This document shows positions 13,401-60,656 of a stretch of DNA of 64,000 nucleotides, piece after piece. The first letter of the stretch is position 1, and each line of letters starts with the position of its first letter. The notes beneath the pieces were generated by a model, which worked only from the letters and a program-made list of their open reading frames with translations, was not told the DNA's origin and searched no databases. The stretch is from a virus, in the IMG/VR virus record IMGVR_UViG_3300034356_001764, positions 16,204 to 80,203 of that record. One strand, 5' to 3'. The position numbers and the translations under genes are program-made.

Positions 13401-15773
13401 ATTAGCAGACAGTGCAACATCAGCAACTGTATTACCTACTCCTTTAAGTGTACCCATGGGATCTTTTGCAATACGCAATAATGCTGGAGCTCCAGTTAAT
13501 TCTAGCACTGCATCAGTAACTCCCATATTAGCTTCTTTTCTAGTATTAGCTTGATCTACTGCATCCTGATATTGGCCTTTATAACCTTCCTTCATTGTAG
13601 CTTGGTCATACTTACCCCAACCTCTTTCATCATACAGTCTGGCAAAGTCAGAAGTTGATATCTTACCTTCTTGAACCTTTCTTCTAGCACGTTCATAATC
13701 TTGAGCTCCTTGATTATGTTCTTTAACTCCTTGTGTAAATCTTTGAAGTTCTTTTATAGAAAAGTCTTTAGGTTTTAAATCTTGATACCAAAGCTTTCTA
13801 CCTTGAGCAGTATTCATAAGAGCTTTACTCTTATCCATTAACTCTTTCCAGCGTTCTTTATCTGAAGCTTTTGCATAAGCAAATGTTTCCGCTTCATCTT
13901 GAGATTTATCTATAATGGGTTGTTGTGAACCTTCTTGAGCTTGAGGTAGTTCTTCTACTATATAACCACCTTTTCTATACTGTTCAATTTCTTGAGGAGT
14001 TAAATCCATTTCAACATACCCACCATCTTCTTGCATGGCCATCTTGTCATTAACTCCGTATGCCCATCTTTTATATGCAGTGCGGCCTTCTCTTAATGGA
14101 AGACTTGGTATTTCTTCACCACCTTTTTGTGCATGCACTAATCCTTGACCACCACATTTATGACATGTAGTAACATCATCACTACCATCTGCAGCATTCC
14201 ATTTCCAACCACATTTTTTACAGGTTACTTTCTTAGTAAGTAAAGCACCTCCTTTTTGTTCTTTATTTAAAAAAGCTGGTGATACTGATTTATAATGTTC
14301 TGCAAAATATTGGGCATCTGCAGGATTATTAAATCTTATTGCTTCATTAGATTCTGGACCATAATCACCAAGCATTAACTGACCATTCTCATTTTGTATT
14401 TGAGGTACAGCATAATTATCCATACTAGCCATATAGTGAGTACCTGTATTACCATTTTCAAATTGATATGGATTATCAGTAGGGACAACCATTCTTTTTG
14501 CAGCAGGATTGCCAAATTCATTTGCATAAGCAAGCTTTGCTTTCATCATACCACTTGTATAATCTTGCAAATGAGATGGTAAAGGAATATCATATTCTCC
14601 TTCTTCATTATGTGAATCTACTACAGCTTGTCCTTCTGGAGTAGTTTCTCTCCAGTTTCTATACTCATTAAGTTTATTTTGAATTAAATTATAATCATCA
14701 AGTGTCCAACCTTTAGGATTTCCAATTTGATTTTCTATGGCTTTAATTTCTTTTCCCCATTCTTGTGGAGTTGTTGAACCACCAAATTGAAACAGTTGTC
14801 CACTAAATCCAAGTTTATCAATTACAGATTGTTTATTATCAATATGTCTATCAATACCAAGCTCTCTTACTTTAGCTACCTTAGCTTCATCTGAACCCAT
14901 TGCAAAGATTCTATCTTCTGGGATACCTGCATTACGTGCCCTAGTGATCATATCTGGTGTTACTTCTTCTCTAGCAGATATAATATACTTCTGATCACTA
15001 GGTGTATTCATTGCCATTTCCATTCCTGCATCAGTTGTAAGAGTATCATCATAGTCAAATGATACAATACCACCATCTGCGTAGAAACTTGCATTAGGAT
15101 CAAAGATTTTTCTTTTTCTAGATTTAGGTACTTCAAATAAAGGATTCAATGCAAACAATCTATTTGTTGCTTCAAGACTTCTTGAATAAGCTTTTGATTT
15201 AATTCCTTTTGATCCAGTAGGTATTCTTACTTTAGGAGTTTGCCCACCTTTCTTAAAATCTTCAGGTTGCTCAAGCTCTGGTTGAAGTCTGTAATCAGTT
15301 GTTAATTCTTCCCCAGCTTTAATATCTCTTTTTGCATAGACATATCTTTCATTACCTTTTTTAACACTATACATGTTAGGTGTGTCAGAGTGATTATGCA
15401 TCTTTCCAATCTCTCCTACTGGTTGACCATTTCTATGCGCTAAACCTATAAGTTGATTTTTTTTAAAAAAAGTATTTGCAAACAATCCTTTATCAGCTCC
15501 TGCAATTTTTGATTGTTTAACTACTAAATGACTGTTAGCTTTATTACCTCCTTTTTTTAATTCAGGATATTCATCAACATACTTAGCACCCGGAAAATTA
15601 TATTCCTCCTCTGGATGCATCATTACTGGTGAACCAAAATCTGGATAAGCCATGACAGGATATGGAACATTGTCCATGGTTATGTCATTACCTGGAATTC
15701 TAGTTGGTACTCCAGGATGTGCCCACTGACCTCTTGGATCAACAATAATTTTAGATTTAGATTTCTTATTCAT
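10500..15773 (-). CDS. Polyvalent cargo protein: SET, HAD-like, Zn ribbon, GNAT, PG-binding, CHAP/NlpC-like and lysozyme/SLT-like domains (1757 aa)
   Basis: Motifs: GLFA...NHSDTPN...DIKAGEELTTDY (SET); SFDYDDTL...ISAR...HIDN (HAD); CKKC...CHKC; VDPKFQRQGIG (GNAT motif A); VKAIQKKL...DGIMGNRT (PG-binding); GCS...HLGFV...WH; QNESSG...GYYQM. Confidence 0.75.
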   Translation of the reverse strand: MNKKSKSKIIVDPRGQWAHPGVPTRIPGNDITMDNVPYPVMAYPDFGSPVMMHPEEEYNFPGAKYVDEYPELKKGGNKANSHLVVKQSKIAGADKGLFANTFFKKNQLIGLAHRNGQPVGEIGKMHNHSDTPNMYSVKKGNERYVYAKRDIKAGEELTTDYRLQPELEQPEDFKKGGQTPKVRIPTGSKGIKSKAYSRSLEATNRLFALNPLFEVPKSRKRKIFDPNASFYADGGIVSFDYDDTLTTDAGMEMAMNTPSDQKYIISAREEVTPDMITRARNAGIPEDRIFAMGSDEAKVAKVRELGIDRHIDNKQSVIDKLGFSGQLFQFGGSTTPQEWGKEIKAIENQIGNPKGWTLDDYNLIQNKLNEYRNWRETTPEGQAVVDSHNEEGEYDIPLPSHLQDYTSGMMKAKLAYANEFGNPAAKRMVVPTDNPYQFENGNTGTHYMASMDNYAVPQIQNENGQLMLGDYGPESNEAIRFNNPADAQYFAEHYKSVSPAFLNKEQKGGALLTKKVTCKKCGWKWNAADGSDDVTTCHKCGGQGLVHAQKGGEEIPSLPLREGRTAYKRWAYGVNDKMAMQEDGGYVEMDLTPQEIEQYRKGGYIVEELPQAQEGSQQPIIDKSQDEAETFAYAKASDKERWKELMDKSKALMNTAQGRKLWYQDLKPKDFSIKELQRFTQGVKEHNQGAQDYERARRKVQEGKISTSDFARLYDERGWGKYDQATMKEGYKGQYQDAVDQANTRKEANMGVTDAVLELTGAPALLRIAKDPMGTLKGVGNTVADVALSANPGIGSAFGTGNTNINPLTGNQYWSGLDKTLDVAGVLPGIGSLGKLGKVGKFGKVGSYAEDVLGTSKKITSAPKNMNIKLLPDNVRSQELDMETFGVYKGDTKVGEVSGNRLSSGDFETLDIGVDPKFQRQGIGTEVYKQLNESLPEGNKVRSWGAFVENNGVAPGRNTWQSLERQGLAKQNEKGIYEMLPKKSTKSLGGKALQQEEDGGFIELDLDDEEIEYYRKGGFTIEEVKFQDGGVPTVPTMQQSQSPVVTPMLAPDMMPTGDLVAPPVVTEPVVATTVQQPATLVNTPVVDQPTLTKKEVEKIAMPKIEQSGDVKAIQKKLVAAGYNIGASGPSRDGVDGIMGNRTKMALDAFNSGIPPSKVKTIEPKKQSQSTKYTVNKNLGVGYLPYLDKGEGEEVCVEGKGCSFNVSVKMSNLLGEIADGDIWANDAWFNKSDVLNKGGDLIYETTERDMAKMPKVPKDVYAKLQVGDYVQLNRMNTKTSGEFASETKGGLENENVEHLGFVVGKDKDGTPLIWHASEKGKAFIKRLDEPISLDDHDKSVFTYQVASIVRSPSLKNADLSGLQNTGYYSTVDPKLKLVAGKTATERQKQATGVINNNVRNIKNLGYSQEDTNFVGQILVGGIMQNESSGGESNKRIPKQVAATVYKDVLGQGAFEGDEASIGYYQMKPTLNFVNKDGSLNALGKKLEKLGVDPKDIGTFDIEAQTKAGAIILLDNYEKLKKDKDFNVKTGLYKGKIPASYILAKSWQAGSDWYKREKYQKYINNFDIDYSNNVLKQANEIIGNTSSTNQLQKEYSIVQKGITAREKASEDAQREQVRKDIAEKNKKQAEYEKSNPNFAYSKLVPTESTAVYNPYKDANKLKPFVAPDYTKKVTLQSTVYKYPERPGVTYKKDSNGKWYINTGKSTGNTYVPIKDPSGSRTKALVKGAVKAKEGGMVANLTQAEINRYIKDGYVIEEID

Positions 15774-18700
15774 TATCTTAATGATGCTTGATTCTTACTA
15801 TTTACTACTTTAACTATCATGTTAACACTACCAGAAATTTCTTTCCTTAAAGTTATATAATTTAAGTAATGTCTGAATTTTTTTCTTTGTAGTTCAGCTT
15901 TGTTATAATCTAAACTTGTAAGATTTAATTCTCTACGGTAGCCATCAGGTAATGTTATCCATGCAATTTCTTCTGGATAGTTACCAAGTAACTCAGTTGT
16001 TCCTGGAACTAATGGTCCTGTTGGAGGATAACCTGATCCTAGTGGAAACTCTCCTCTATCTCTTGTTACATCCCAGAATTGATTAAATCTATATTTGTTT
16101 TCTTCTTTTGAAAACAAGATATCAAATCCAGGTAGACCAACCACTGTATCCCTAATGATTATAGGAATAGATGGATTGAATTTAGGATACTCTAAACTTA
16201 GTGTTATATTATTTTTAGGAAATACATTTAAGTTTAAATATCCAGATACTTGTTCTGAGTTATAAATAATTGCTGTGTCAAAGTTATTATCTAGCACATG
16301 GAATTGATCAACACAATTAGCTGCTCTTTTGTAAGATTCAAGTATATATTCAAATGATTTAACTACTGTTGGTGATTGACCTGTAATAATAGGAGTTTCA
16401 ATTTCAAATGGATAATCTTTTCCATAGAAGTTGCAATAAGAATTACATACATAATTATGTTTCCAGAAACTATTTTTCTTTGTTGTTAAGAAAACAGTTT
16501 TACTTGGCATTACTAAATCCGGATGCCAGTCATGAAATGAAATCCACATTTCATTCTTAGGGTCATAACTTGCTGTCCAAGAAGCACTTTCAAATATAGT
16601 AGGGTCACCAAGTAAGTATCTTCCTCTACCATCTAATGTAAAGAAATCTCCTTGTCCTTTTTTATAACCTTTACCTTTAATCATTTGACGGCAATCAACT
16701 ACTAATGGAACATAGTCAACTCTATCTAAGTCTATACCATCTTTAACAATGTAATCTTTCTTAGTAAAATAAAGTATAGAGTTTTCATTATCATATACTG
16801 CCTGTACACCTACTCCAGCTACTGGATTATCTTTCCATGGATAATCAGGAAACTGAGTTGTAAGTTTACACTTTAAGAATAGTGAATACCACCACTTTAA
16901 TCCAACTTGAGATATCTCTTTTAATCCTCCTGCATAACTAAATATCTTACCTTGATTCTGTGATGCATAAAATAAGCCTGCTGGAGTAGAGATAACTGCA
17001 AGTCTATTTTGAGATGATCCATACTCATATGGCTTATCTGCATTTGAAACAGACTGACCGGGTTGAGAAAATAAACCACCATCACCAATAGTAATCTTAG
17101 TTCCTAAATCTGTTTGAAGTGTATCAACACCTTGAAACATTTGTGGACTATCATTCTTAAATGTAATGAACAAACCACTTTTGTTTATAGACTTAACACC
17201 AGATATTTGAGACTTAAATTCTCTATAGTTATTTGGTAAAAATATAAACCAGCTATCTTTAAATGATTCATCTTGTTGTTGTAATGAATAATAAATTCTA
17301 TCTGGAAAATATGTATAACATAGTTGAGATACATTTGGGTTGTAGTATCTATTTTGTAAATTACCAGAAGAGAAATACTGATTGTATAGTTTACTTACAC
17401 TTAATGAATAGTCATATCTAAATGTGTTACCTCTTGTAATGTTTTCTGGATTAATTTCAAACATTCTAGCAAGCTCAGTATAACGGTAAGGATCATAATG
17501 CTTTTCCCATTCATTATCTCCAGCTTCTCTATAATCTACTATTACATCTGACTCAACAAAGAAGTCTCTTACAGAAGAAACTGCTAAATAGAAAAATGAA
17601 TCCTTTGGTCTAAATACACCTGGATAATCTCCTGCTGTATCATTTGTATAATCATATCCTGGATTTGTAGGTGTTGGACCATGATCCATTCTATAAAATC
17701 TTGTTGGAAAAGCTCCTGTTCCAGGTACTGGTGAATTCCAGTTACTAGGTCCAAGATCTGATACTTCATATTTTCTGGAGTTAACATAAAATCTTGGTTC
17801 AGGAATCATTTGATGAATTGCATAATTATATTCAAAACCATCAGGTTGACCATATAACCAATCATAGAAAAAGAACATTGAATTCTTTTCTGTATATCTA
17901 TTTACATAAACATCTCCACCAAAAAATATTGGGCTAATATTTATTTTTTTAAGTATTACTGCAAGGTTACATGATCCACATTGATTATAAGGACCCCAGT
18001 TTGATAAAGTATTATAATCAAACTTTTGCTCACATGGAGTTATTACAATTTGTTTTATAGATTGCAATTGACCATACTGATTTTGAATTCTTACTTTCAT
18101 TGCCGCATAGTGACTAGCAATTGGTAAAGTAAAATTAGCATCTACAATCTCAAAATTTGGACCTACATTTGGATTAGGAATATAAGGATTTAATGTCAAG
18201 GGATCAACTAAACCATTTTGTTGAATATTACCAAGAGTAGTTAATGACTGATCTACATATCTTGAAGATTCAATAATATAGTTTGGTCCAATTGCACCAC
18301 CAATATAAGGCCCCGCATAATTTGGACCAGCCTCTGTTCTTATTACAACTGTGTCAGATCTTTTAAGATTATTAATACTATAAGATCTGAAAGTACCTGC
18401 TACATTATAATACCCAGGCATTTGCATAATGTTATCTCTTATGTAAGAACTATCTTCAATTTTAAATCTAAATAGTTTTGTACTACTAGGAGATCTCATA
18501 TCTGAGTAGAACCCATGAGCAATCATTTGTGATGCATACTGTGTATAAGGAATAATTGCTCTAATAATATCAGCTGCAATATTTGCTCCTTCAGAAAAAT
18601 AATATAGTGCTTGATTCAAACCACCTAAAATTCTAAGAGGGATTGGTAAGTAATCTAATTTAGGTACTGTATAAGTATACTCATCTCCAGATGCAGAAAT

Positions 18701-21271
18701 TCCACCTGTTGCCGTTGCTGTAGTTATTGCAGCATCTTTTGTTGTATTGATTCCAGCTAAGATAGGTCTTGTACCTGTTACAATATATGATAATGCATCA
18801 AGAATTGAACCACCTGCAGAATAATAAGTTGTTAATGCAGCATCATAAGTAACAGCTGCAGCTTGACCAACAACAGCTCCTGCAACAGCAATAGGATATA
18901 TAGTTAAACCTGTGGCATCTGATGCATAACCTGGTGCTGTAAAGTTTGCAAGTTTTTTATCATACTTTCCAATAAATGAAATTATTGCTTCTGCAATACC
19001 AAGTAGGAACATAGGCAAAACAGTAAGATCAGAAAATAATTTAAACTTAGGATGTTGATTGGGTTCAATAAATCTTTGAGTTGATGCTCCTCTTAAATAT
19101 CCATAAAGCTTAAGTTCAGTTCCTGATAAAAATGGAGTTTTAAAACTTGTATCTGGAGAATGAAAACTTACAAAATCTGATGGAACATTCTGATCAAAAA
19201 CACTATCATTATCATTAGGATTTGGAATTCTTATATAAGGATCAATAAAATTTCTATTATGATCACTACCACCTGTTGAATTATAAAAAGGTTTAATAGT
19301 ATTAAATGGATAATTTGCATACATGCCTTTTCTTGGAGCTGCTGGATTACTCACCTGCCCAACAATATCATATGTTCTAAAATTGTTAAGCATTCCCTTA
19401 GCAATGATAGACTTATTACCCTCTCTTGATCCTCTTAAGATCTCATAACCAACAATACCAGGAATATCATTACCTTCATTATCTTTTGGATATGTAATAT
19501 TTTCAAAGAAAACTCCAAGCAATCTAATTTTTAATTCATTAGGTTGATTGCTTAATGTTGGTTTAAAATGATTAGTAAGTTTATTTGCACTTGGATCTAA
19601 ACAGTTATCCGGAAACTTATGATGTCTGATATTATCACCACATAGATCATAAGTATTACTTGGTTGATTGTAAAAGCCTGTCCAACATTGAGCACTTGTA
19701 TTCCAAATTTCTGGTTTATCATCAGGATACTGTTCAGTAGATTCCCAGTAACCCATGTTTCCAACTGCAATTACTGTACCTCCGTCATCTGTTGTAGTTG
19801 ATAACCCACTTGGTATTGTTCCTATTGAAGCAGTATTAAATACTTCAAATACATTATCACTTGCACTTAATGCATTTTGATTAAAACTTATTCCAGTTTC
19901 TGGTAATCCATTGTATAATCCTGGAGCTCTTCCTGGAATATGATAAGAAGATGATTTATCACCTGTATCATATACCCATCTAATAAAGAAACAATAAACT
20001 TCATCTCTTAAGTAACTTGCCTTATTTCCACTTTTTACATAATAGTCAGAAGGATATTCAACTGAAGCCCACTTGGCTGTAATTAGATTAGCTAATGGTT
20101 GGTAGTTAAAATCAAATTTAGAAGTAGGTCCAACTCTCAGTAAGTAATTATTTACTTCAGATATCTGATCAGATTTTTCAAAAACTGGTGTCTGAATTGG
20201 AAGCTGCTCTAGTGGTACAGTTATTAAATCTTCTTTTATTTGATCTAAAGCAATAACATTTGTTCTAGTAGAATATATACCAACTTGTCTTGCAACAGTT
20301 CCTTGGTTTATATTTTGTACAATGACCAAGATAAACTCATCAAAGTTTACACTGTCAGCTTCTACTTCAAGTACAAGTGAACCTTGTAAATCTTGAGGAG
20401 TCCAAATTTGTTGGTTGTTACTTTGAGAAAAATAGTCTGTAACTTTTTGACCTTTAATGCTATAAGCAATAACTGCAAAGTAAGTTCCATTTCTTAATGT
20501 ACCACCTTGATTACCAAGTGTTAAATTAAGACATGGTGTCTCCATTAATCTTGCTAATCTAATTTTATCACAATCTAACTGATTAATATCAACACATGTA
20601 ATGCAACCTATTGGATGGCCAGAAGGCCAAACATCTGGTTGTGTTTCTGATACACCAGTTTCATCAGTACAAATTTGTTTCCATTTTACTCCTGGCCACA
20701 AAAGTAGATTTACACCATTTGAGTAATAATTAATATTTACTTGTCCCACCCAACTATAGTTAGCAGCTGGCCAAGTTTGAGGATCTCCTACATTTAAAAC
20801 TCTATCTGGATTTAATGCATCTGCAAAATATACTTGCCAAGTACAATCTTCTTTCTCTCTTGAAGCTCCGCTTATTAAATATCTTTTATCAAACTTAAGA
20901 CATGCATCTTGTACAATAGGTCTGTAAACACAAGTATCAGTTTCTAGTAAACCAATCTCTGACATAACAGGTATACCAGTTGAATCATGACCTGCTGTAA
21001 ACACTATCCACTTATCTGAGAATAATTGTATAGTGCCAATAATGTATTTGTCTACTGCAATTGCAGGCATTGTTAAACCTGCTGTTGCACATAGAATATT
21101 AGATTGCTCATTAGAAAGGGTTCCAATATTACCCTCATCTGTATTATTTGTTGCATTTCTAGCATGTGTCCACATTCCTTCTCCTACAAAAGAAGGGTCA
21201 GAATCTTTGTTCATCCCCTTAGAAAAACTACGGGTGACGTTCTGTGTTGTATTTTGTAAACCTTTTGCCAT
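15773..21271 (-). CDS. Tail stabilisation/muzzle-like protein (P22 gp10-like, crAss muzzle position)
   Basis: About 1830 aa, beta-rich. N-terminal FSKGMNKD...ARNA and C-terminal WTASY...WISFHDW motifs. Likely start MAKGL at 21271 (TAATG overlap with the upstream stop). Confidence 0.75.
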   Translation of the reverse strand: MAKGLQNTTQNVTRSFSKGMNKDSDPSFVGEGMWTHARNATNNTDEGNIGTLSNEQSNILCATAGLTMPAIAVDKYIIGTIQLFSDKWIVFTAGHDSTGIPVMSEIGLLETDTCVYRPIVQDACLKFDKRYLISGASREKEDCTWQVYFADALNPDRVLNVGDPQTWPAANYSWVGQVNINYYSNGVNLLLWPGVKWKQICTDETGVSETQPDVWPSGHPIGCITCVDINQLDCDKIRLARLMETPCLNLTLGNQGGTLRNGTYFAVIAYSIKGQKVTDYFSQSNNQQIWTPQDLQGSLVLEVEADSVNFDEFILVIVQNINQGTVARQVGIYSTRTNVIALDQIKEDLITVPLEQLPIQTPVFEKSDQISEVNNYLLRVGPTSKFDFNYQPLANLITAKWASVEYPSDYYVKSGNKASYLRDEVYCFFIRWVYDTGDKSSSYHIPGRAPGLYNGLPETGISFNQNALSASDNVFEVFNTASIGTIPSGLSTTTDDGGTVIAVGNMGYWESTEQYPDDKPEIWNTSAQCWTGFYNQPSNTYDLCGDNIRHHKFPDNCLDPSANKLTNHFKPTLSNQPNELKIRLLGVFFENITYPKDNEGNDIPGIVGYEILRGSREGNKSIIAKGMLNNFRTYDIVGQVSNPAAPRKGMYANYPFNTIKPFYNSTGGSDHNRNFIDPYIRIPNPNDNDSVFDQNVPSDFVSFHSPDTSFKTPFLSGTELKLYGYLRGASTQRFIEPNQHPKFKLFSDLTVLPMFLLGIAEAIISFIGKYDKKLANFTAPGYASDATGLTIYPIAVAGAVVGQAAAVTYDAALTTYYSAGGSILDALSYIVTGTRPILAGINTTKDAAITTATATGGISASGDEYTYTVPKLDYLPIPLRILGGLNQALYYFSEGANIAADIIRAIIPYTQYASQMIAHGFYSDMRSPSSTKLFRFKIEDSSYIRDNIMQMPGYYNVAGTFRSYSINNLKRSDTVVIRTEAGPNYAGPYIGGAIGPNYIIESSRYVDQSLTTLGNIQQNGLVDPLTLNPYIPNPNVGPNFEIVDANFTLPIASHYAAMKVRIQNQYGQLQSIKQIVITPCEQKFDYNTLSNWGPYNQCGSCNLAVILKKINISPIFFGGDVYVNRYTEKNSMFFFYDWLYGQPDGFEYNYAIHQMIPEPRFYVNSRKYEVSDLGPSNWNSPVPGTGAFPTRFYRMDHGPTPTNPGYDYTNDTAGDYPGVFRPKDSFFYLAVSSVRDFFVESDVIVDYREAGDNEWEKHYDPYRYTELARMFEINPENITRGNTFRYDYSLSVSKLYNQYFSSGNLQNRYYNPNVSQLCYTYFPDRIYYSLQQQDESFKDSWFIFLPNNYREFKSQISGVKSINKSGLFITFKNDSPQMFQGVDTLQTDLGTKITIGDGGLFSQPGQSVSNADKPYEYGSSQNRLAVISTPAGLFYASQNQGKIFSYAGGLKEISQVGLKWWYSLFLKCKLTTQFPDYPWKDNPVAGVGVQAVYDNENSILYFTKKDYIVKDGIDLDRVDYVPLVVDCRQMIKGKGYKKGQGDFFTLDGRGRYLLGDPTIFESASWTASYDPKNEMWISFHDWHPDLVMPSKTVFLTTKKNSFWKHNYVCNSYCNFYGKDYPFEIETPIITGQSPTVVKSFEYILESYKRAANCVDQFHVLDNNFDTAIIYNSEQVSGYLNLNVFPKNNITLSLEYPKFNPSIPIIIRDTVVGLPGFDILFSKEENKYRFNQFWDVTRDRGEFPLGSGYPPTGPLVPGTTELLGNYPEEIAWITLPDGYRRELNLTSLDYNKAELQRKKFRHYLNYITLRKEISGSVNMIVKVVNSKNQASLR

Positions 21272-22314
21272 TACATTAGTCTTGAAGTTCCTACTCTTCT
21301 CCAATATGGATCATTTGGACTATAACTTTTAAACATATCATAGTATTTTGCATACTGTGCTCTTCTGTTTGTCCACCATACTTTTTCCATTTCTCTAAAG
21401 TTTGGTGTATTAACTAAACTTAGTGCTGCATTTCTTGCTGCTCTAAACTCTGGAATAATAAGCTGTAGCTTTTGAGCCATGTCTTCTCCATTGAGAGCTA
21501 AGTTCTCTATGATTCTTTTCTTCAATGCATACTCATAGTAGTCATTAATCAATTCATGATTAGGAACCATTAGATTATTATTCTCATCCGTCAACTCTCC
21601 CTGGTAGTTTATATAAACATGACCCGTTTGAAAAGTTGTATATAAGTAATTGTCTTTTAACCAACCTTGATTAGCTGTATTGTAATAAAGATTTGGGCAT
21701 TCACAATCTATGTTCTGACTCTGCTTCATTCTTAGAGGAACTAAAGATTTATAAACTCTTGATTGAACCGGATTAATTACTTGGATAATTTCATACTGAT
21801 CACCTTTACAGTTCATGAATACTCTTGGAGCAATACATGTATCCCCGTAAGGATTATTTGGATCATACTCAGTTGGTATTGGATCTACTATAGGATGATT
21901 AAGATCACATGCAGCAGTCTTGTTACATGGATTAGAATTACATGTTCTACAATTAACTGTAGGAGCTACACACTGATCTACTGTAGCTGGAAATTCTCTG
22001 TAAGGAATCTCTTGAATATTAGTTCCAGAAACTTGTCCACCATAACCGGTCATAACAGTATATTCACCACACACCATTCCATAGTTCCATACATAGAAAT
22101 CATCAGGAAGTTTAACTTTTCCATGACAAACTTCTAATACAACTTCCTTAGTTTGATTTATTCTTAAACCAAGATCATAATTTAACCTGCGGGCAACTTT
22201 AATTAATTGCTGAGGTTCAATCATGTTCTCTAAGGCTAGAGTATTTAAGTCAATACTAACATCTTCTAATAAAGAATCAAATGTCCGGTATTTTAGTGTG
22301 TAATTGAAATCCAT
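21271..22314 (-). CDS. Tail tubular/ring protein with Cys-rich insertion
   Basis: KLPDDFY and YINYQG...MVP motifs; immediately upstream of the muzzle-like gene. Confidence 0.65.
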   Translation of the reverse strand: MDFNYTLKYRTFDSLLEDVSIDLNTLALENMIEPQQLIKVARRLNYDLGLRINQTKEVVLEVCHGKVKLPDDFYVWNYGMVCGEYTVMTGYGGQVSGTNIQEIPYREFPATVDQCVAPTVNCRTCNSNPCNKTAACDLNHPIVDPIPTEYDPNNPYGDTCIAPRVFMNCKGDQYEIIQVINPVQSRVYKSLVPLRMKQSQNIDCECPNLYYNTANQGWLKDNYLYTTFQTGHVYINYQGELTDENNNLMVPNHELINDYYEYALKKRIIENLALNGEDMAQKLQLIIPEFRAARNAALSLVNTPNFREMEKVWWTNRRAQYAKYYDMFKSYSPNDPYWRRVGTSRLM

Positions 22315-23554: not shown

Positions 23555-23596
23555 AATAATATACTAAAAATAAATGACTTTAGCAAATATAGGTAT

Positions 23597-50965: not shown

Positions 50966-51298
50966 TTAATTTGTTTGAACTAATGAACTTATTAAGTCAA
51001 CAAACTTAGTTACTTTAGTTTTTTTAGCTGCAGTCAATGATGAGTATTCAATAGAAATTTCTTCTATATCTGTTTCTCCCAGAACTATAATATTTGCTTC
51101 AAAGTAATCTGATCCATTATAGTCTAAAACATTTACAGTTATGTGATTTCCAATAACTCCTACAAAGTCATTTACTACTTTTATATCTTCAGTTGATGCT
51201 GTACTTAAATCTAAGTAAACATTATTACTATTAACATAAGCCATTACTACATTAGTAGTTGCTGGGGCTGATGAGGATACTGAACAATTTAGTGTCAT
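50966..51298 (-). CDS. Hypothetical protein
   Basis: In-operon ORF after the spike gene. Confidence 0.5.
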   Translation of the reverse strand: MTLNCSVSSSAPATTNVVMAYVNSNNVYLDLSTASTEDIKVVNDFVGVIGNHITVNVLDYNGSDYFEANIIVLGETDIEEISIEYSSLTAAKKTKVTKFVDLISSLVQTN

Positions 51299-54050: not shown

Positions 54051-54081
54051 CAAATATAAAACTTATTTTTATTTATGCAAA
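54051..54081 (-). promoter_or_regulatory. Canonical Bacteroidota promoter TTTG-N19-TATATTTG
   Basis: Exact -33/-7 consensus with a 19-nt spacer. Confidence 0.7.
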
Positions 54082-55310: not shown

Positions 55311-55943
55311 TTATTCATTATCATAAAACATTCTATCAGAATCTTCAGTATGCCATTTCTCATAATCTTCTACATTGTAAAAATCCTTACATACTAGATA
55401 GTCTGGTTTGTCTGGAAATGCTTTAGTAACAAATGAAGGCTCTGACCATTTGATTCTATTATTAGGTTGAAGAGCAATCTGACCATTATCAAGAAGTATA
55501 ATATGATGAGACTTATGTTCATCAGGAGTCTCTGATAAAGTTAAATCAGTATTCATATCATTACTCCCCCAGTTAATGGTAGCATAGTAACTTCCTTTAT
55601 ACCACTTTCTATCTTTAGCATAAAATTCTACAGGAGCATCCTTCAGGTAGTTCAATTGCAACAGAGTAAAGTTATATGAGAAGCAATTCCATATCTGCAG
55701 ATAATGAAATGGTAGATCTGGATTTGGTAGTTGTGGTTTGGTCATTAGGGCATGTGATGGTAGTTTATCTCTAAGCACTCCATTCTCTAACAGTACTTGG
55801 AACAATGCTGCCTGTCCCGGCATACATCTAACAGATATTATTACCCCCGCAGTAAATTCTCCTTTACCCTTAGCACCCTGATACATGTATTCATTTCTAA
55901 CAAACACCTTCAGTGGAAAAAAGTTATGTTCTATATATGCCAT
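55311..55943 (-). CDS. Conserved phage protein of unknown function
   Basis: VRNEY...LPSHAL...WNCFSY...EHKSHH...NGQIALQPNNR. Confidence 0.65.
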   Translation of the reverse strand: MAYIEHNFFPLKVFVRNEYMYQGAKGKGEFTAGVIISVRCMPGQAALFQVLLENGVLRDKLPSHALMTKPQLPNPDLPFHYLQIWNCFSYNFTLLQLNYLKDAPVEFYAKDRKWYKGSYYATINWGSNDMNTDLTLSETPDEHKSHHIILLDNGQIALQPNNRIKWSEPSFVTKAFPDKPDYLVCKDFYNVEDYEKWHTEDSDRMFYDNE

Positions 55944-55944
55944 A

Positions 55945-56577
55945 CTATATAATTACACTTTGCAAAATCTCTATACATAAATCATGAGGTATCTTTGAAC
56001 TTTCATAACTATTCTTTTTTCCTTGTGATCCATTCTTACTTCCTCTAGGAGAAGGTTGATGATGGCAATTCTTATTTCCATTGTGACAAACCGGACGAGG
56101 AATCCATTTGCTACTATTAGTCCAAATATCTGTAGGCTTAGCTCTATCTTCACCATACTGGCAATACCAAATAGTATGTCTTTTAAACCCTTGCATAAAA
56201 GGCATCTTACGCATCATCCCCCTAGGATTCTCTATAAAAAAAATCATGTTTGGATTAATCTTTAACCACTCATTTATTAAATCAATAAAATGAATATTTA
56301 CAGCATCACACTTATGAGCATACTGAGATTTAGGAATAACTCCATCTCTGTGTCTACTAATAGCAGCAACACTATACGTAGCACAATCAGGAGAAGCCCA
56401 TAGTACATCTGGTACAAAAGGAACATGATTTAATTTCATATGCTCTACATCCATAGCCAAATCAATTCCATCAAAAGGTTCCCAATCTACAGAAAAAACA
56501 TTCATCCCTAAACTTTCTCCAGCCTTGCCTATAGATCTAGCCCCTGCAAATAACTCAAGCAAATTATACTTATTCAT
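55945..56577 (-). CDS. DNA (cytosine-5) methyltransferase, short type
   Basis: LELFAG (motif I), WASPDC (IV), IENP (VI), KPT.IW. Confidence 0.75.
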   Translation of the reverse strand: MNKYNLLELFAGARSIGKAGESLGMNVFSVDWEPFDGIDLAMDVEHMKLNHVPFVPDVLWASPDCATYSVAAISRHRDGVIPKSQYAHKCDAVNIHFIDLINEWLKINPNMIFFIENPRGMMRKMPFMQGFKRHTIWYCQYGEDRAKPTDIWTNSSKWIPRPVCHNGNKNCHHQPSPRGSKNGSQGKKNSYESSKIPHDLCIEILQSVII

Positions 56578-56594
56578 TACTATAACAATTTTAG

Positions 56595-56602
56595 CAAAGA
56601 TA
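56595..56602 (-). promoter_or_regulatory. Bacteroidota -7 element TATCTTTG
   Basis: TAnnTTTG upstream of the methyltransferase. Confidence 0.5.
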
Positions 56603-56959
56603 ATATTTTCTGGTTACACTCTACTAATGCTACTGACATAGATAAACTAATACACTTGGGTATTTGAATTTTTACTATACTAGAGAAAGTGTGGGCCCCC
56701 TATAAAATGAACCCCCCACAAAATTCCACAGGGTGGTACCCCCTATCAATTCCTAGACAATGTCTGTACACTAGAATAAAATTAGAAAAAAAATCCTGGC
56801 AGGAAAGTTTCTCATGGTCAGTAGATGATGTGATGTGATACTAATGATGATATGTTATGTACTATGTATTGATTACAAGGGGGAGGGTGGTGCTGACACA
56901 CAAGCCAAGCTCATCTATGAAGAGGCAAGGTTTGTTATTATATATATAGAGGGGGAAAG

Positions 56960-57001
56960 AGCCTTCGGCAGCTTCTTATACAGCTTAATACTACTATGGA
57001 T
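56960..57001 (+). promoter_or_regulatory. 42-nt early repeat copy 1 (candidate virion RNAP promoter)
   Basis: agccttcggcagc...atacagctt.atact..tatggat, shared with 57707-57748. Confidence 0.55.
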
Positions 57002-57022
57002 TAATCAAATAAAACTATAGTT

Positions 57023-57208
57023 ATGATTGTAAAATTTATGATTGAAGAGATTGAAGGGATTTTAATCTTGTTAGGCAAACCTGCTGATGCAGTTATGTTA
57101 GATGCATTTAATGAATTACCTGCTGAAGAGGTTAAAGCCTTCAGAGATAGTATTGCAGAAGAGTTTGGGATATTAAACCCAAGTAAACACTTACTGTTAA
57201 TAGATTAA
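57023..57208 (+). CDS. Early small acidic protein
   Basis: Follows repeat 1; downstream terminator. Confidence 0.6.
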   Translation: MIVKFMIEEIEGILILLGKPADAVMLDAFNELPAEEVKAFRDSIAEEFGILNPSKHLLLID

Positions 57209-57211
57209 ATA

Positions 57212-57233
57212 AAGGGGGAGTGATCCCCTTTTA
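57212..57233 (+). terminator. Intrinsic terminator (GTGA loop)
   Basis: GGGGA-GTGA-TCCCC-TTTT. Confidence 0.65.
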
Positions 57234-57260
57234 TTATTGTAAAACTTAAAATTAAATATC

Positions 57261-57434
57261 ATGAAAAAGATAAACTTAACTTATGAAGAAATAGAGTTAT
57301 TGCAATTTCTTGTAAAGATTGTAGACCAACCTTATTTTATAAATGAGGAAATGTATGAAAAAATTGATGCACTACAGTTAAAGCTAATAGCTATGAGAGC
57401 TCAATTAGAATATTTAAAAGTAAGAGAGGAGTGA
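57261..57434 (+). CDS. 57-aa early protein (missed by ORF track)
   Basis: MKKINLTYEEIELL...KVREE; AACTTAAA leader; stop codon lies in the terminator loop. Confidence 0.65.
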   Translation: MKKINLTYEEIELLQFLVKIVDQPYFINEEMYEKIDALQLKLIAMRAQLEYLKVREE

Positions 57435-57472
57435 TCCTCTTTTCTTTTTATACTGATACTAAAACAACAAAT

Positions 57473-57685
57473 ATGAATGCAGAAACATTAATACAAGTAG
57501 TAGAAATAATTGATTCTAGACTACAAGTAATTGAAGAATCATTTACTTATGATCCTGATAGGGAAGAAAGTATAGATATGGCTCAACAAATAGGTAAAGA
57601 GAAAGCTCTTGAAGAATTAAAAGATTATCTACAAAAGTACATTGATAATCAAGTAGCTCACATGGAAACAGAACAAGGGATGTAA
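57473..57685 (+). CDS. Early helical protein, paralogue of 58968-59153
   Basis: Likely start MNAET; shared IDxRL/I and AL..L...LQ..I....A.ME...G pattern. Confidence 0.65.
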   Translation: MNAETLIQVVEIIDSRLQVIEESFTYDPDREESIDMAQQIGKEKALEELKDYLQKYIDNQVAHMETEQGM

Positions 57686-57706
57686 TATCCCTTTTTCTTT
57701 TTACTT

Positions 57707-57748
57707 AGCCTTCGGCAGCCTTTGATACAGCTTTATACTGTTATGGAT
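57707..57748 (+). promoter_or_regulatory. 42-nt early repeat copy 2
   Basis: Same length and core as 56960-57001. Confidence 0.55.
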
Positions 57749-57783
57749 AATATATTGTTTAACCCATTTAAAAACTATTAAAA

Positions 57784-58071
57784 ATGGACACTGTAAAAAC
57801 ACAAGGGATTCTTAAATCCGTAGGTAATGCTGTTAAGGCAAATGTTAATGGAACAATGTTCCGTACTTGCACTGTTGAAATCAATGACAAAGTATACTTT
57901 GCAAAGATTTGGGAAAAGTCATTCCAGAACGGTGTTACTATTGGTAACTCTTACACTGTTGAATTGCAACAAGATGGTGACACTGTTTGGTTAACTGTAC
58001 TTAACGGTTCAAGTGCAAACATTGCAAGCAAAGAAGACTTTGCACACTTGTTTGCAGGATTAACTGTATAA
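57784..58071 (+). CDS. Small beta-rich (OB-fold-like) early protein
   Basis: Beta-strand pattern; flanked by repeat 2 and a terminator. Confidence 0.6.
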   Translation: MDTVKTQGILKSVGNAVKANVNGTMFRTCTVEINDKVYFAKIWEKSFQNGVTIGNSYTVELQQDGDTVWLTVLNGSSANIASKEDFAHLFAGLTV

Positions 58072-58078
58072 CAAAATT

Positions 58079-58111
58079 GAACACACTCTTAACGGGGTGT
58101 GTTCTTTTTTT
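58079..58111 (+). terminator. Intrinsic terminator
   Basis: GAACACACTC...GGGTGTGTTC-TTTTTTT. Confidence 0.7.
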
Positions 58112-58634
58112 CATTCTTGTGATCCTATGGTGTTTTAGAGATCCAAAATTACGGGGGTAGTATCCCATAAACATTGGAAAACATTGTTGGAATCCTAACT
58201 TAGCCTCCGGCATCCTTGCATACATAGAACATTGTGTTCTATTGACCGGTCTTCAGAAGACATCTATGGTTGTATGTAGCAAATATTTGTAGAAATTATG
58301 GAGATCCACAGGAGACAACTAAGATTGTTTGTAGCAAAAAGTAATTTGTAACTAGTTGAGGATAAATAACTTAGGATAAGTGTGTGAATGAAAGTGATAG
58401 AATGTGATCAACCTTCAACTAATATTAACCTACCTTAGTCAACACATATTCCTACTAAAGCCTTAGACTAATACAAATTATATAGCTACATATAACTTAG
58501 TGTAGTGATCACACTATTACTATTACTCTATATACTATCTTATCTATTACTTGGTCTTTAAAGAAGACAGTAAGGGCTACCGGGATATTGATTTGAGCCA
58601 CAAAAATATTATTAACCAACTTAAAACTTAACTT

Positions 58635-58718
58635 ATGGAAAAAGTAATTGACATTGGCTACAAAGTAGCAATTATACTATGGTTCTTTATAGAACTATAT
58701 TACTTGATAACAACTTAA
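58635..58718 (+). CDS. 27-aa single-TM micro-protein (missed by ORF track)
   Basis: MEKVIDIGYKVAIILWFFIELYYLITT with AACTTAAAACTTAACTT leader. Confidence 0.5.
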   Translation: MEKVIDIGYKVAIILWFFIELYYLITT

Positions 58719-58729
58719 AACTTATACTT

Positions 58730-58948
58730 ATGTTTATTAAATACACTACATTCTGCCTAACTATTATAACTACTATAGGTGTAATAGCTTTATTTCTTTT
58801 TCCAAGAGATCCCAAATTAAAATCAACTGAGTATCTTATGGAAGTATATGATGATGGATACTACATATACTGTGACCAAGGATTTGTTGGTGTTGTACCA
58901 TTAGGTAACACAGCACTGGATTCATTAATGATAGATTATAACCAATAA
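58730..58948 (+). CDS. Membrane-anchored early protein
   Basis: Likely start MFIKY after AACTTAAAACTTATACTT; N-terminal TM. Confidence 0.6.
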   Translation: MFIKYTTFCLTIITTIGVIALFLFPRDPKLKSTEYLMEVYDDGYYIYCDQGFVGVVPLGNTALDSLMIDYNQ

Positions 58949-58967
58949 CTAACTTAAATATATACTT

Positions 58968-59153
58968 ATGGAAAACCCTCATAAAATAGATCTTGTTGCT
59001 ATGATTGATGCAAGAATTAACATGTATCAGAAAGCTGATGCTAATGAACCTTTCTATCAAGGAGCTATAGCTGCTCTTAGAAGTTTAGGAGAAGAACTAC
59101 AAATGTCTATTGAAGCTGACATAGCTGCAATGGAAAGCAATACAGGAGAGTAA
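58968..59153 (+). CDS. Early helical protein, paralogue of 57473-57685
   Basis: See paralogue. Confidence 0.65.
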   Translation: MENPHKIDLVAMIDARINMYQKADANEPFYQGAIAALRSLGEELQMSIEADIAAMESNTGE

Positions 59154-59183
59154 TCTTCTGTGTATTAATTAACTTAAAAATAT

Positions 59184-59378
59184 ATGATTATGAAAAGAAT
59201 GTCTGATTACAATTGGAATTGGTGGTTTATAGTAAACCTTATTGGTATTGTCATTGGTATGTCTATTGCTCTAGTAGCAAAAAGTACAGATGATCTATGG
59301 TTAGCTGATATAATATTAATTATCACCGTAATATCATTTATCCCTTGCCTATATGTAGGCATGAAACCAGAAGAATAA
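59184..59378 (+). CDS. Small 2-TM membrane protein
   Basis: Two hydrophobic helices. Confidence 0.6.
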   Translation: MIMKRMSDYNWNWWFIVNLIGIVIGMSIALVAKSTDDLWLADIILIITVISFIPCLYVGMKPEE

Positions 59379-59393
59379 CTAAAAACAAATAAT

Positions 59394-59558
59394 ATGAACA
59401 ATCTATTTAACCTTATCCTTATTGTATTATCAGGAGTAACTTGTATTCTAGCTGTCACAGCTGAAACTACAGAAGTATTTATGCTTGCTAGCACAGCAAT
59501 GTTTTTATGTGCATTACTATTTCTATTAAATCTTAAACACCCATTATTTAAAAAATAA
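59394..59558 (+). CDS. 54-aa 2-TM membrane protein (missed by ORF track)
   Basis: MNNLFNLILIVLSGVTCILAV...LFKK. Confidence 0.6.
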   Translation: MNNLFNLILIVLSGVTCILAVTAETTEVFMLASTAMFLCALLFLLNLKHPLFKK

Positions 59559-59633
59559 AAGTTATGATCCTAACCAGTACAAGGATTTAGCTGATTAACT
59601 TTGTACAATTGATTAACTCTTAAAACTCTGATT

Positions 59634-59783
59634 ATGAAAAAAACAAATCTTTACATTGCTATTTACTTTACAATAGCAATTATTTTTGCAACACTTGTTA
59701 GCTCTTGTGCTACAACTCATGCAAAGTGTGATGCCTATGGTCAGGCTAACTATTCACAGAATCAAGATACTGCTTCTAAGTAA
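59634..59783 (+). CDS. 49-aa lipoprotein (missed by ORF track)
   Basis: MKK + hydrophobic core + LVSSC lipobox; mature part CATTHAKCDAYGQ... Confidence 0.65.
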   Translation: MKKTNLYIAIYFTIAIIFATLVSSCATTHAKCDAYGQANYSQNQDTASK

Positions 59784-59805
59784 GTATTCTTGTAATGATC
59801 ATTAT

Positions 59806-59833
59806 AAGAGAGCTCAAAAGGCTCTCTTTTTTT
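59806..59833 (+). terminator. Intrinsic terminator
   Basis: AAGAGAGC...GCTCTCTT-TTTTT. Confidence 0.7.
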
Positions 59834-59854
59834 TATTTACTAAAATTATTTGTT

Positions 59855-60097
59855 ATGTCAATGAGAAAACTACAAGAGGAATTAGAAAACCTTAAAGATG
59901 AATTGTATGTGCTTCACTTTGCTGAAGCAAGTCCAGAACTTTATAAGGAGAAGAGATCTGAAATTGAATACAAAATTGCATGTCTTGAAGAAAGAATTGA
60001 AGAAGAACAAAAGCTTAATCCATTTAGAATGATGCTATTTGGATTTATTATCATTGCCTGCGGCATAGTATTATGGGCGTATGTAGCAAAACATTAA
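59855..60097 (+). CDS. Coiled-coil protein with C-terminal TM
   Basis: Likely start MSMRK. Confidence 0.6.
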   Translation: MSMRKLQEELENLKDELYVLHFAEASPELYKEKRSEIEYKIACLEERIEEEQKLNPFRMMLFGFIIIACGIVLWAYVAKH

Positions 60098-60116
60098 TAA
60101 CTAAAACTATCTGATT

Positions 60117-60656
60117 ATGAAAAAACTAATTAAATACTTTGAAAATATTAATCTTAATGTAAAGTTTGCTTTTGGGCTTATTTTACTATTATCATTGATG
60201 AGTCTAACCCTTAACTATTCTAGTAATGAAAAGCTTATTGCTATACAAGGAGAGACTGAAGAAATAAGCAAGATCATTATAAAGGATGAAGTCCAGTTTT
60301 CTGAGCTGGAACTTAAAAATCTATTGCTTGAACTTAACATAAGATTCCCGCACATAGTATTAGCTCAGTCTAAGCTAGAATCTGGAAACTTTAAATCACG
60401 TATCTTTCTTGAGAACAATAACATGTTTGGAATGAAAGAAGCCAAGAGAAGACCAACTACTAACAAAGGCACACAAAATGGACATGCTTACTTTGAGTCA
60501 TGGAAAGATTGTGTTATTGATTATGCATTCTACCAGGCTGCATATCTTAATAGTCTGAAAACAGAAGACCAGTACTATCAGTATCTTTCAGCTAGTTATG
60601 CTGAGGATCCTAACTATGTTACCAAAGTAAGACAAATGGCAAATTCACTTAAGTAA
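60117..60656 (+). CDS. Membrane-anchored glucosaminidase (GH73/FlgJ-like)
   Basis: LAQSKLESG, NNMFGMK and YAEDPNY motifs; N-terminal TM. Confidence 0.75.
   Translation: MKKLIKYFENINLNVKFAFGLILLLSLMSLTLNYSSNEKLIAIQGETEEISKIIIKDEVQFSELELKNLLLELNIRFPHIVLAQSKLESGNFKSRIFLENNNMFGMKEAKRRPTTNKGTQNGHAYFESWKDCVIDYAFYQAAYLNSLKTEDQYYQYLSASYAEDPNYVTKVRQMANSLK

Follow-up and report, generated by a model that had tools for sequence, protein, structure and literature searches.

The DNA analyzed here (the window; 64,000 nucleotides, positions 16,204 to 80,203 of IMG/VR record IMGVR_UViG_3300034356_001764), which comes from an uncultured crAss-related phage, carries a repeated module ahead of its first small rightward genes. 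On balance, and with moderate confidence, we interpret these repeats as composite early promoters for the phage's own RNA polymerase (RNAP), in which a mini-hairpin serves as an accessory structural element. Judged from sequence, the modules are candidate start signals of an injected crAss-type RNAP.

The copies start at positions 56960, 57707, and 58202, all on the plus strand, and they are the sole copies in the whole 80,203-base contig. A repeat search of the window returned the same pair of 42-nt repeats that had been noticed originally (56960-57001 and 57707-57748; 86% identical), together with a 27-nt repeat family with three members starting at 56956, 57703, and 58198. A pattern scan for AGCCTTCGGCAGC, with up to 2 mismatches allowed, gave 3 matches (0.20 expected), as did a 22-nt degenerate pattern (0.06 expected; at least 3 matches in 0 of 100 shuffles). 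Reverse complementation agreed with the template-strand readings of the original prediction, i.e., GCC-GAA-GGC (copy 1), GCC-GAA-GGC (copy 2), and GCC-GGA-GGC (copy 3). The features of the region are as follows.

56960..57001, plus strand: candidate promoter module P1 (repeat, pattern, and matrix scans)
57023..57208, plus strand: first small rightward ORF, 61 aa, no family match (ORF list, family search)
57211..57231, plus strand: intrinsic-terminator-like hairpin and T run after the 61-aa ORF (terminator scan)
57261..57434, plus strand: small ORF, 57 aa, no family match (ORF list, family search)
57422..57446, plus strand: intrinsic-terminator-like hairpin and T run (terminator scan)
57431..57685, plus strand: small ORF, 84 aa from GTG or 70 aa from ATG at 57473
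57675..57693, plus strand: intrinsic-terminator-like hairpin and T run just 5' of P2 (terminator scan)
57707..57748, plus strand: candidate promoter module P2 (repeat and matrix scans)
57784..58071, plus strand: conserved 95-aa gene downstream of P2
58079..58104, plus strand: intrinsic-terminator-like hairpin and T run after the 95-aa gene (terminator scan)
58202..58224, plus strand: copy 3, with hairpin GCC-TCC-GGC (58203-58211), spacer, and TACA only (repeat and pattern scans)
58225..58678, plus strand: ORF-free stretch of about 450 nt, 3' of copy 3
60056..60065, plus strand: lone 10-nt GCCTGCGGCA inside ORF 59795-60097, without box (pattern scan)

P1 consists of the mini-hairpin GCC-TTC-GGC (56961-56969), a 9-nt spacer, and the box TACAGCTTAATACT (56979-56992), followed by ACTATGGAT; the ATG at 57023 lies 22 nt 3' of the module. 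P2, which lies directly after a terminator and ahead of the 95-aa gene, contains the mini-hairpin GCC-TTC-GGC (57708-57716), a 9-nt spacer, and the box TACAGCTTTATACT (57726-57739), followed by GTTATGGAT. The position-weight-matrix scores of P1 and P2 were 32.9 and 33.8 bits, respectively (shuffles, at most 18.9 bits for both), and only these two modules scored when the window was scanned with the box matrix (next best, 10.7 bits). The site at 58202 had been described as a degenerate copy; it shares the hairpin, the spacer, and TACA with the other two, but the matrix scan of the window found no box there. A perfect 8-bp hairpin (58224-58242) occupies the place of the box. The orthologous module of relatives, P3, carries a full box, and a module orthologous to P2 was present in 62 of 62 distinct upstream regions of homologous genes. 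We regard GCCTGCGGCA at 60056 as a chance match outside the system.

Each module has an intrinsic terminator on one side and a small gene on the other, and terminator-like sites were frequent in the surrounding region (15 in 56400-60200 versus 1.3 expected). The number and content of the small genes vary among relatives while the boxes persist, and the ORF-free stretch after P3 measures 340 to 550 nt in relatives. The modeled 95-aa protein has five strands and one helix, a fold that may tentatively be called OB-like. An Rfam search returned nothing above noise.

The constant element is the 14-nt box TACARCTTNNNACT; the hairpin is not the common denominator. In five genomes, the box was restricted to one 1- to 3-kb cluster per genome on a single strand, with counts of 2, 4, 7 (+1), 10 (+1), and 7 (+1), compared with 0 matches for a reversed control pattern. 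Its blocks are bipartite (CTT-N3-ACT, plus T and GGAT), and the motif spans about 23 nt without interruption. Approximately half of the relatives' boxes have no mini-hairpin, which makes the mini-hairpin dispensable for at least one promoter class. Hairpin modules, for their part, adjoin boxes only, except for copy 3 and two chance-like matches inside ORFs. The distance from hairpin to box is 3 to 13 nt (8 to 11 nt in 36 of 44 cases; outliers, 3, 4, 7, 12, and 13 nt), and the spacer between them is not conserved. The start region contains at least two G's in 39 of 53 promoters with a hairpin versus 13 of 50 without. The box and hairpin were absent from phi14:2, phi17:2, and FpV4, in which box matches equaled those of controls, so the signal is not extended here to crAss-type RNAPs in general.

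To examine the hairpin, 51 distinct orthologous promoters on related contigs were picked by position, not by pairing. Conservation of stem and loop in related phages had been suggested as a check on the original prediction, and both were found. The three inner hairpin pairs were kept in all 51 orthologs (153 of 153 cells), with changes on both sides seen at all three, and the covariation score was 0.206 (shuffles, 0.044; reached by 0 of 500). Compensating stem swaps comprised GCC/GGC, GTGC/GCAC, GCT/AGC, TGCC/GGCA, and AGCC/GGCT. These compensating changes go back to perhaps 2 to 4 independent events. Furthermore, several stems occur within one genome (GTGC/GCAC and GCC/GGC in L045; three types in L042), which argues that structure rather than duplex sequence is recognized. 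Of 45 distinct modules, 43 have the coding-strand loop T-N-C, i.e., template-strand G-N-A, with any of the four bases in the middle; the remaining 2 have a TTT loop, and this loop (template AAA) was seen in three promoter lineages.

The stem is 3 bp long in most modules and 4 to 5 bp in some, with pairing held by compensating changes, and the original caveat that it is shorter than in N4 (5 to 7 bp) stands. According to the literature, C(GNA)G triloops are unusually stable in single-stranded DNA, and a palindrome of 9 bp is not readily extruded from a duplex. The folding energies calculated with generic DNA parameters were low (−1.5 to −2.5 kcal/mol) and, at a z close to 0, no better than those of shuffles. 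An exact 22-nt pattern yielded 30 scattered single matches over the whole collection, about the chance level, so relatives were located via the 95-aa protein instead. The region had no blastn match among cultured phages.

Regarding host-type signals, sigma-70-like sites were not enriched in 56400-60200 (18 versus 20.8 expected), and the TAnnTTTG box of the Bacteroidota type was absent from the plus strand at 56600-59595. Such boxes lie just 5' of leftward genes (56595, 54051, 51001, and 23584). The variable N3 of the 14-nt box removes the sole TATACT-like hexamer. The phage probably infects a freshwater bacterium of the Bacteroidota.

Several other readings of the sequence were rejected. A sigma-54 reading of GGCA...TTGCA failed on spacing and on the loss of GG in the GTGC/GCAC variants. 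A UNCG tetraloop reading (C-TNCG-G) would put C·C at the following pair and is impossible for the GTGC and TGCC-TTT variants. The mini-hairpin has neither a U run nor, at P1, a gene upstream, and was rejected as an RNA 3' end or terminator. An ACAG/CTGT inverted repeat within the box showed no covariation and was rejected. Lastly, the "AACTTAAAACTTA..ATG" repeats ahead of later small genes had background scores with the box matrix and are read as translation-start regions.

The original prediction presupposed a virion-type RNAP in the genome, and a homolog of phi14:2 gp66 is encoded just outside the window, in an ORF of >3653 aa (G000:C1:2-10960). Residues 1717-2310 of this ORF align by blastp with residues 859-1373 of gp66 (E value, 4.9e-21), and DYDVD (residue 2298) falls on DFDID of gp66 (residue 1361), i.e., the DxDxD metal-binding motif. 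A search of genomes matched the ORF to gp66 at an E value of 1.2e-12, and tblastn gave 1e-16 to phi14:2 and 8e-22 to cr108_1; the tblastn matches also include crAss phages and the 4287-aa gp32 of FpV4, which is annotated as a virion structural protein. The same giant ORF is present in four of four near-complete relatives. Given its position at the end of the virion-protein block and the annotation of FpV4 gp32, the giant protein is probably packaged and injected. BLASTP comparison of the 1843-, 1757-, and 1313-aa proteins of the window with phi14:2 gp67, gp66, and gp65 revealed nothing significant, which places the RNAP outside the window. In phmmer searches against PDB sequences, neither these three proteins nor the RNAP region had a match; gp66 aligns by BLAST. 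The T7-like RNAP family PF00940 had no match in five genomes, a result of little weight because control genomes gave none either.

Among known systems, the early promoters P1 to P3 of N4 are read by the injected virion RNAP gp50 (PMC4496689). As in N4, the modules here are few, stand ahead of the first genes, and belong to a phage with a giant polymerase protein; in both, a 3-nt loop separates the arms of a small inverted repeat, with G first and A third on the template strand, and the stem sequence is free while pairing is kept. The N4 enzyme, however, is T7-like, whereas the enzyme here is of the two-barrel gp66 type. The N4 hairpin has a stem of 5 to 7 bp, is fixed at −17 to −5, and has the start 11 nt from the loop center, while here a 3- to 5-bp stem lies 3 to 13 nt 5' of a separate conserved box that is also a unit without a hairpin. 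In N4, moreover, −17 to +1 is conserved, and gyrase-driven extrusion and a single-strand-binding protein are needed. Of the suggestion that N4-like promoters precede the early genes, the modules do stand ahead of small rightward genes without a Bacteroidota-type box; the geometry of N4 is not matched in stem length or in the distance to the box.

In phi14:2, the virion RNAP gp66, an enzyme resistant to rifampicin, transcribes the early genes. This enzyme favors single-stranded templates and in vitro initiated on single-stranded DNA only; no common motif was found 5' of the early transcripts (10.1101/2020.03.07.982082). The present phage resembles phi14:2 in having a homologous polymerase with an aligned catalytic motif, small early genes that point away from the virion block, and an ORF-free early stretch reminiscent of the early intergenic regions that are highly transcribed in phi14:2; in this clade, by contrast, the polymerase is fused into the ORF of >3653 aa. 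The virion RNAP gp96 of Thermus phage P23-45 uses AT-rich pre-early promoters, with a motif derived from mapped starts and ChIP-seq (10.1101/2022.12.01.518664). In both systems, a clade-specific motif 5' of the first genes goes together with a two-barrel RNAP that is part of a giant structural protein carried (here, probably) in the virion, but no hairpin is described for P23-45, and the sequences are unrelated. The contiguous block of about 23 nt, with its G-rich start end, phage specificity, and hairpin terminators that follow, also resembles the 23-bp promoters of T7-like single-subunit RNAPs, although the enzyme class differs.

Under the composite-promoter reading, the constant part is the clade-specific TACARCTTNNNACT-NN-T together with the short initiation region after it, which span about 23 nt; it would be read by the gp66-like RNAP as part of the giant >3653-aa protein. 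We infer the promoter function, the polymerase that would read it, and the strand and nucleic acid that would fold. One promoter class has an inverted repeat of 9 to 13 nt located 3 to 13 nt (mostly 8 to 11 nt) 5' of the box and kept as structure, not sequence; its template strand would form a mini-hairpin of the C(GNA)G type. This hairpin would be accessory, either helping the polymerase to open or hold the DNA or being touched directly. It marks a subclass whose start region is G rich (ATGGAT), and this subclass would drive the most conserved early functions, i.e., the 95-aa OB-like protein and the ORF-free stretch. A start downstream of the box would put the hairpin near −35, outside the normal transcription bubble. 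Of the original idea of hairpin promoters for a crAss-type virion RNAP, the gp66 homolog, compensating stems, and G-N-A loops remain, but the constant element is the box. A bolder version is possible, if doubtful: the crAss-type two-barrel RNAP would have a bipartite promoter whose upstream part is a hyperstable template C(GNA)G mini-hairpin, converging with N4, and the 95-aa OB-fold protein, as the first conserved product of these promoters, would serve the phage as its own SSB-like cofactor, keeping the hairpin or template single stranded.

We consider it improbable that, strictly as in N4, the template hairpin itself is the promoter determinant, extruded or exposed as single-stranded DNA and recognized by the virion RNAP, with a start at a fixed distance of about 11 nt from the loop center (in the spacer) and the box either initially transcribed or separate. 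The covarying stem and the template G-N-A loop of 43 of 45 modules would fit, N4 promoter loops also holding a sheared 5'G:A3' pair (PMC4496689); so would the retention of the hairpin in copy 3 despite the loss of its box and the preference of phi14:2 gp66, like the N4 virion RNAP, for single-stranded or denatured templates. Against this, about half of the promoters have a box without a hairpin, hairpin modules stand only beside boxes (bar copy 3 and the two chance-like ORF matches), position +11 from the loop center shows no conservation, the hairpin-box spacing ranges from 3 to 13 nt, and the stems (3 to 5 bp versus 5 to 7 bp in N4) have unremarkable folding energies. The inverted repeat might instead be a duplex operator, bound by a phage or host protein that switches the hairpin-tagged subclass, with the hairpin never forming. 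In favor of such a site, the palindrome is short and GC rich and keeps a roughly constant distance 5' of a promoter, an unpaired central base is common in operators, and the element marks a distinct promoter subclass. However, the half-site centers are merely 6 bp apart, the conserved loop T and C are asymmetric, stem changes are strictly compensating in 51 of 51 orthologs, and a sequence-reading dimer would not tolerate the unlike stems within one genome (L042 and L045), so we judge an operator to be equally improbable.

It is unlikely, too, that the box is read by host RNAP together with either an alternative host sigma or a phage specificity factor (injected or early), with the hairpin as an upstream regulatory site. 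Sequence by itself names no reading enzyme, the bipartite blocks (CTT-N3-ACT; T plus GGAT) could suit a sigma-type factor, and the middle promoters of phi14:2 are host type (10.1101/2020.03.07.982082); yet the units have neither a sigma-70-like nor a Bacteroidota TAnnTTTG box, the box is restricted to one small cluster per phage genome, the contiguous motif of about 23 nt resembles promoters of single-polypeptide phage RNAPs, and the homologous phi14:2 system uses its virion RNAP for early genes under rifampicin. The PeSL promoters of T4-type phages are strong, sigma-70-like, and read by the host enzyme (PMC2839356). Their likeness to the modules is architectural only, i.e., in a variable region, every small early gene is flanked by units of a terminator stem-loop and a promoter; the promoters are of another type, and the GNA mini-hairpin has no counterpart in PeSLs. 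The modules could be recombination cassettes of this kind that shuffle small genes, the mini-hairpin having no function of its own: a promoter box and a terminator enclose every small gene, relatives differ in which small genes they carry and in how many while the boxes stay, and PeSL cassettes act likewise (PMC2839356). We give this reading very little credence, as it leaves the compensating hairpin conservation, the loop rule, and the link to the start region unexplained; it is also compatible with promoter function rather than opposed to it.

To our knowledge, no promoter has been defined for a crAss-type virion RNAP. This clade supplies a compact signal of about 40 nt, with two separable parts, that is conserved over many lineages. 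It exists naturally as the box alone, as hairpin plus box, and, in copy 3, as the hairpin alone; these variants, together with the natural compensating stem mutants, suffice for the design of oligonucleotide templates and direct in vitro tests. If the hairpin is functional, two unrelated injected polymerases would have converged on the same trick for recognizing their first promoters.

The window is the final 64 kb of an 80,203-base virus contig in IMG/VR (estimated completeness, 68%). Its genes at positions 1 to 56577, including those for terminase, portal, major head protein, and several giant proteins, run leftward; small rightward ORFs begin at 57023, and the repeats are located at this change of direction. 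A repeat search of the window recovered a 42-nt pair (56960 and 57707; 86% identical), with which the first 23 nt of a third copy (58202) are shared. The three repeats of the original prediction are confirmed; pattern searches yielded 3 matches (0.06 to 0.2 expected) and revealed no further copy in the whole contig. A 10-nt match at 60056 was rejected as a fourth copy (inside an ORF, without any flanking features). The features are as follows.

56960 to 57001, plus strand: candidate promoter module P1, hairpin GCC-TTC-GGC
57707 to 57748, plus strand: candidate promoter module P2, same hairpin
57784 to 58071, plus strand: gene for a 95-aa protein, behind P2
58202 to 58224, plus strand: copy 3, hairpin GCC-TCC-GGC
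58225 to 58678: ORF-free stretch

Related loci were gathered via homologues of the 95-aa gene (13, then 23, then 56). They contain a recurrent 14-nt box, TACARCTTNNNACT, located ahead of small ORFs on the gene strand. In five genomes, it was confined to one 1- to 3-kb cluster per genome (2, 4, 7, 10, and 7 copies) plus three strays, and a reversed control pattern had no match in the same genomes. Phages phi14:2, phi17:2, and FpV4 contained no matches above the control level. When the window was scored with a matrix built from 103 distinct promoters of relatives, only P1 (32.9 bits) and P2 (33.8 bits) stood out (next best, 10.7; shuffles, up to 18.9). Copy 3 retains the hairpin, the spacer, and TACA, but the remainder of the box, complete in the orthologous third promoter of relatives, has been lost. 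The constant element is the box and not the hairpin, which 50 of the 103 promoters lack.

The 53 promoters with a GC-rich mini-hairpin continue after ACT as nnTatGGaTat, whereas a T-rich stretch precedes the 50 hairpin-less ones, whose continuation is AnTaTTaAt; two or more G's occur in the presumed start region of 39/53 and 13/50, respectively. Hairpin modules occur only beside boxes, except for copy 3 and chance-like matches in ORFs. The stem-to-box distance is 8 to 11 nt in 36 of 44 modules (3, 4, 7, 12, or 13 nt in the others).

The hairpin was assessed in the promoter before every 95-aa homologue, a set selected by position and not by pairing. A triloop inverted repeat was present at the same place in all 62 distinct upstream regions. 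When 51 distinct sequences were aligned with MAFFT, standard pairs filled 153/153 cells of the three inner stem positions, and the covariation score was 0.206 (shuffles, 0.044, with 0/500 reaching 0.206; slid partners, ≤0.082), so the pairing expected by the original prediction is kept in related phages. Both-sided changes affected every inner pair (GC to UA in 6, CG to GC in 6, and CG to UA in 1), representing few independent compensating events, perhaps 2 to 4. The template-strand C(GNA)G arrangement also held: the loop is T-N-C, with all four bases seen in the middle, in 43 of 45 distinct modules (TTT in two), which reads as G-N-A closed by C-G on the template strand. A more distant lineage carries GC-TTC-GC, the complement of which is GCGAAGC, a classic stable mini-hairpin. 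Generic DNA folding parameters gave only -1.5 to -2.5 kcal/mol (z near 0) for either strand; hence, the argument for stability rests on the published properties of GNA triloops and not on our computation.

The 1,843-, 1,757-, and 1,313-aa proteins of the window had neither a DFDxD motif nor similarity to gp65 to gp67 of phi14:2. A search of the whole contig with gp66, the virion RNA polymerase (RNAP) of this crAss-like phage, detected an open frame of >3,653 aa (G000:C1:2-10960, minus strand, clipped by the contig end), 5.2 to 16.2 kb before the window start. Its residues 1717 to 2310 align with gp66 residues 859 to 1373 (E value, 4.9e-21), and DYDVD (residue 2298) falls exactly on the catalytic DFDID. 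This region also matches gut crAss phages, phi14:2, and gp32 of Flavobacterium phage FpV4 (4,287 aa; annotated "virion structural protein"). The same giant ORF is present in four near-complete relatives (107 to 122 kb); the versions of relatives span 3,268 to 3,732 aa. The genome thus encodes, outside the window, a crAss-type RNAP, and the original prediction does not founder on the lack of such an enzyme. From its sequence relationships, we infer that the protein is packaged in the virion. The 1,843-aa virion protein (15773 to 21304) is unrelated to phi14:2 gp67; giant structural proteins related to it at approximately 25% identity occur in Cellulophaga phages phi17:2 and phi4:1 (Lightbulbvirus), Leptolyngbya phage Lbo-JY46, and Flavobacterium FpV phages.

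Every module has an intrinsic terminator on one side and a small gene on the other, and terminator-like sites are frequent (15 versus 1.3 expected; 56400 to 60200). As no gene lies upstream of P1, the hairpin does not serve as a 3'-end signal. Its reading as a UNCG tetraloop fails on the variants. Stem types (GCC/GGC, GTGC/GCAC [also AGTGC/GCACT], GCT/AGC, TGCC/GGCA, and AGCC/GGCT) differ between close relatives with otherwise identical flanks (locus L202 versus L160; L201 versus L154) and within single genomes (L042 and L045); recognition of a structure fits this pattern better than a duplex operator. Regarding host-type promoters, sigma-70-like sites were not enriched (56400 to 60200), and the Bacteroidota -7 box TAnnTTTG was absent from the plus strand between 56600 and 59595. 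On the minus strand, it occurs just upstream of leftward genes (56595 to 56602, 54051 to 54058, 51001 to 51008, and 23584 to 23591); overall, the motif was not enriched (77 versus 95 expected). This placement is consistent with two promoter regimes and with a host from the Bacteroidota.

In N4 promoters, conservation spans -17 to +1, and inverted repeats flank a GC-rich heptamer whose centre is at -11; a sheared G:A pair lies within the 3-nt loop of the hairpin, the distance from the hairpin fixes the start, and gyrase and host SSB are required (PMC4496689). The proposed N4-like promoter is borne out in the loop rule and in a stem free in sequence but paired, and not in stem length, variable spacing, the separate box, or the enzyme class of this phage clade. 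Any N4-hairpin-like action of the element is partial at best, and it falls outside the N4 promoter family.

Several other features lie in the region. A C-run, a spacer, and GGTGGTACCCCC occupy 56712 to 56744 in the divergent intergenic region, followed by a degenerate box; the counterpart in relatives, CCCCCCAC...GGGGTACCCCCC, is 10 to 12 nt upstream of the first box. The approximately 450 ORF-free nt after copy 3 (340 to 550 nt after the third promoter of relatives) include an 8-bp perfect hairpin (58224 to 58242) and a 30-nt internal repeat (58254 to 58283 and 58309 to 58338), and recall the highly transcribed early intergenic regions of phi14:2. A AACTTAAAACTTA...ATG stretch directly precedes later small ORFs (58613 to 58642, 58707 to 58732, 58945 to 58970, 59164 to 59199, and 59608 to 59643); since the box matrix gives it a background score only, we read it as a probable translation-start region common to these ORFs. 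Two 210-aa leftward genes adjoin the early region (55311 to 55943 and 55945 to 56577): one belongs to the very widespread family phrog_3704 (annotated "ferredoxin"; 424 related IMG/VR loci), and the other is a DNA methyltransferase.

Among the products of hairpin-tagged promoters, the 95-aa protein shows the strongest conservation. Structure prediction (pLDDT, 74) gave it an OB-like fold with five strands and one helix, for which bacterial SSBs, Teb1, and RPA OB domains are the best, though weak, structural neighbours (E value, about 1e-3; TM, 0.43 to 0.54). As a lead and not a finding, the model suggests that it might bind single-stranded DNA.

In phi14:2, early genes are transcribed by the rifampicin-resistant virion enzyme, which worked well on single-stranded or denatured DNA and poorly on duplex DNA, and the authors saw no common motif upstream of early transcripts (10.1101/2020.03.07.982082). 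Homology makes it fairly probable that the clade's own polymerase uses the box as its promoter. The original interpretation is supported in part: the G-N-A loop, the covarying stem, and the encoded crAss-type RNAP stand, but the hairpin is not common to all the promoters, and the N4 geometry does not hold. Most probably, the repeats are composite early promoters used by the gp66-like RNAP of the phage: the enzyme would read the box, and the structurally conserved template-strand mini-hairpin would act as an accessory element. This reading is directly testable with oligonucleotide templates.
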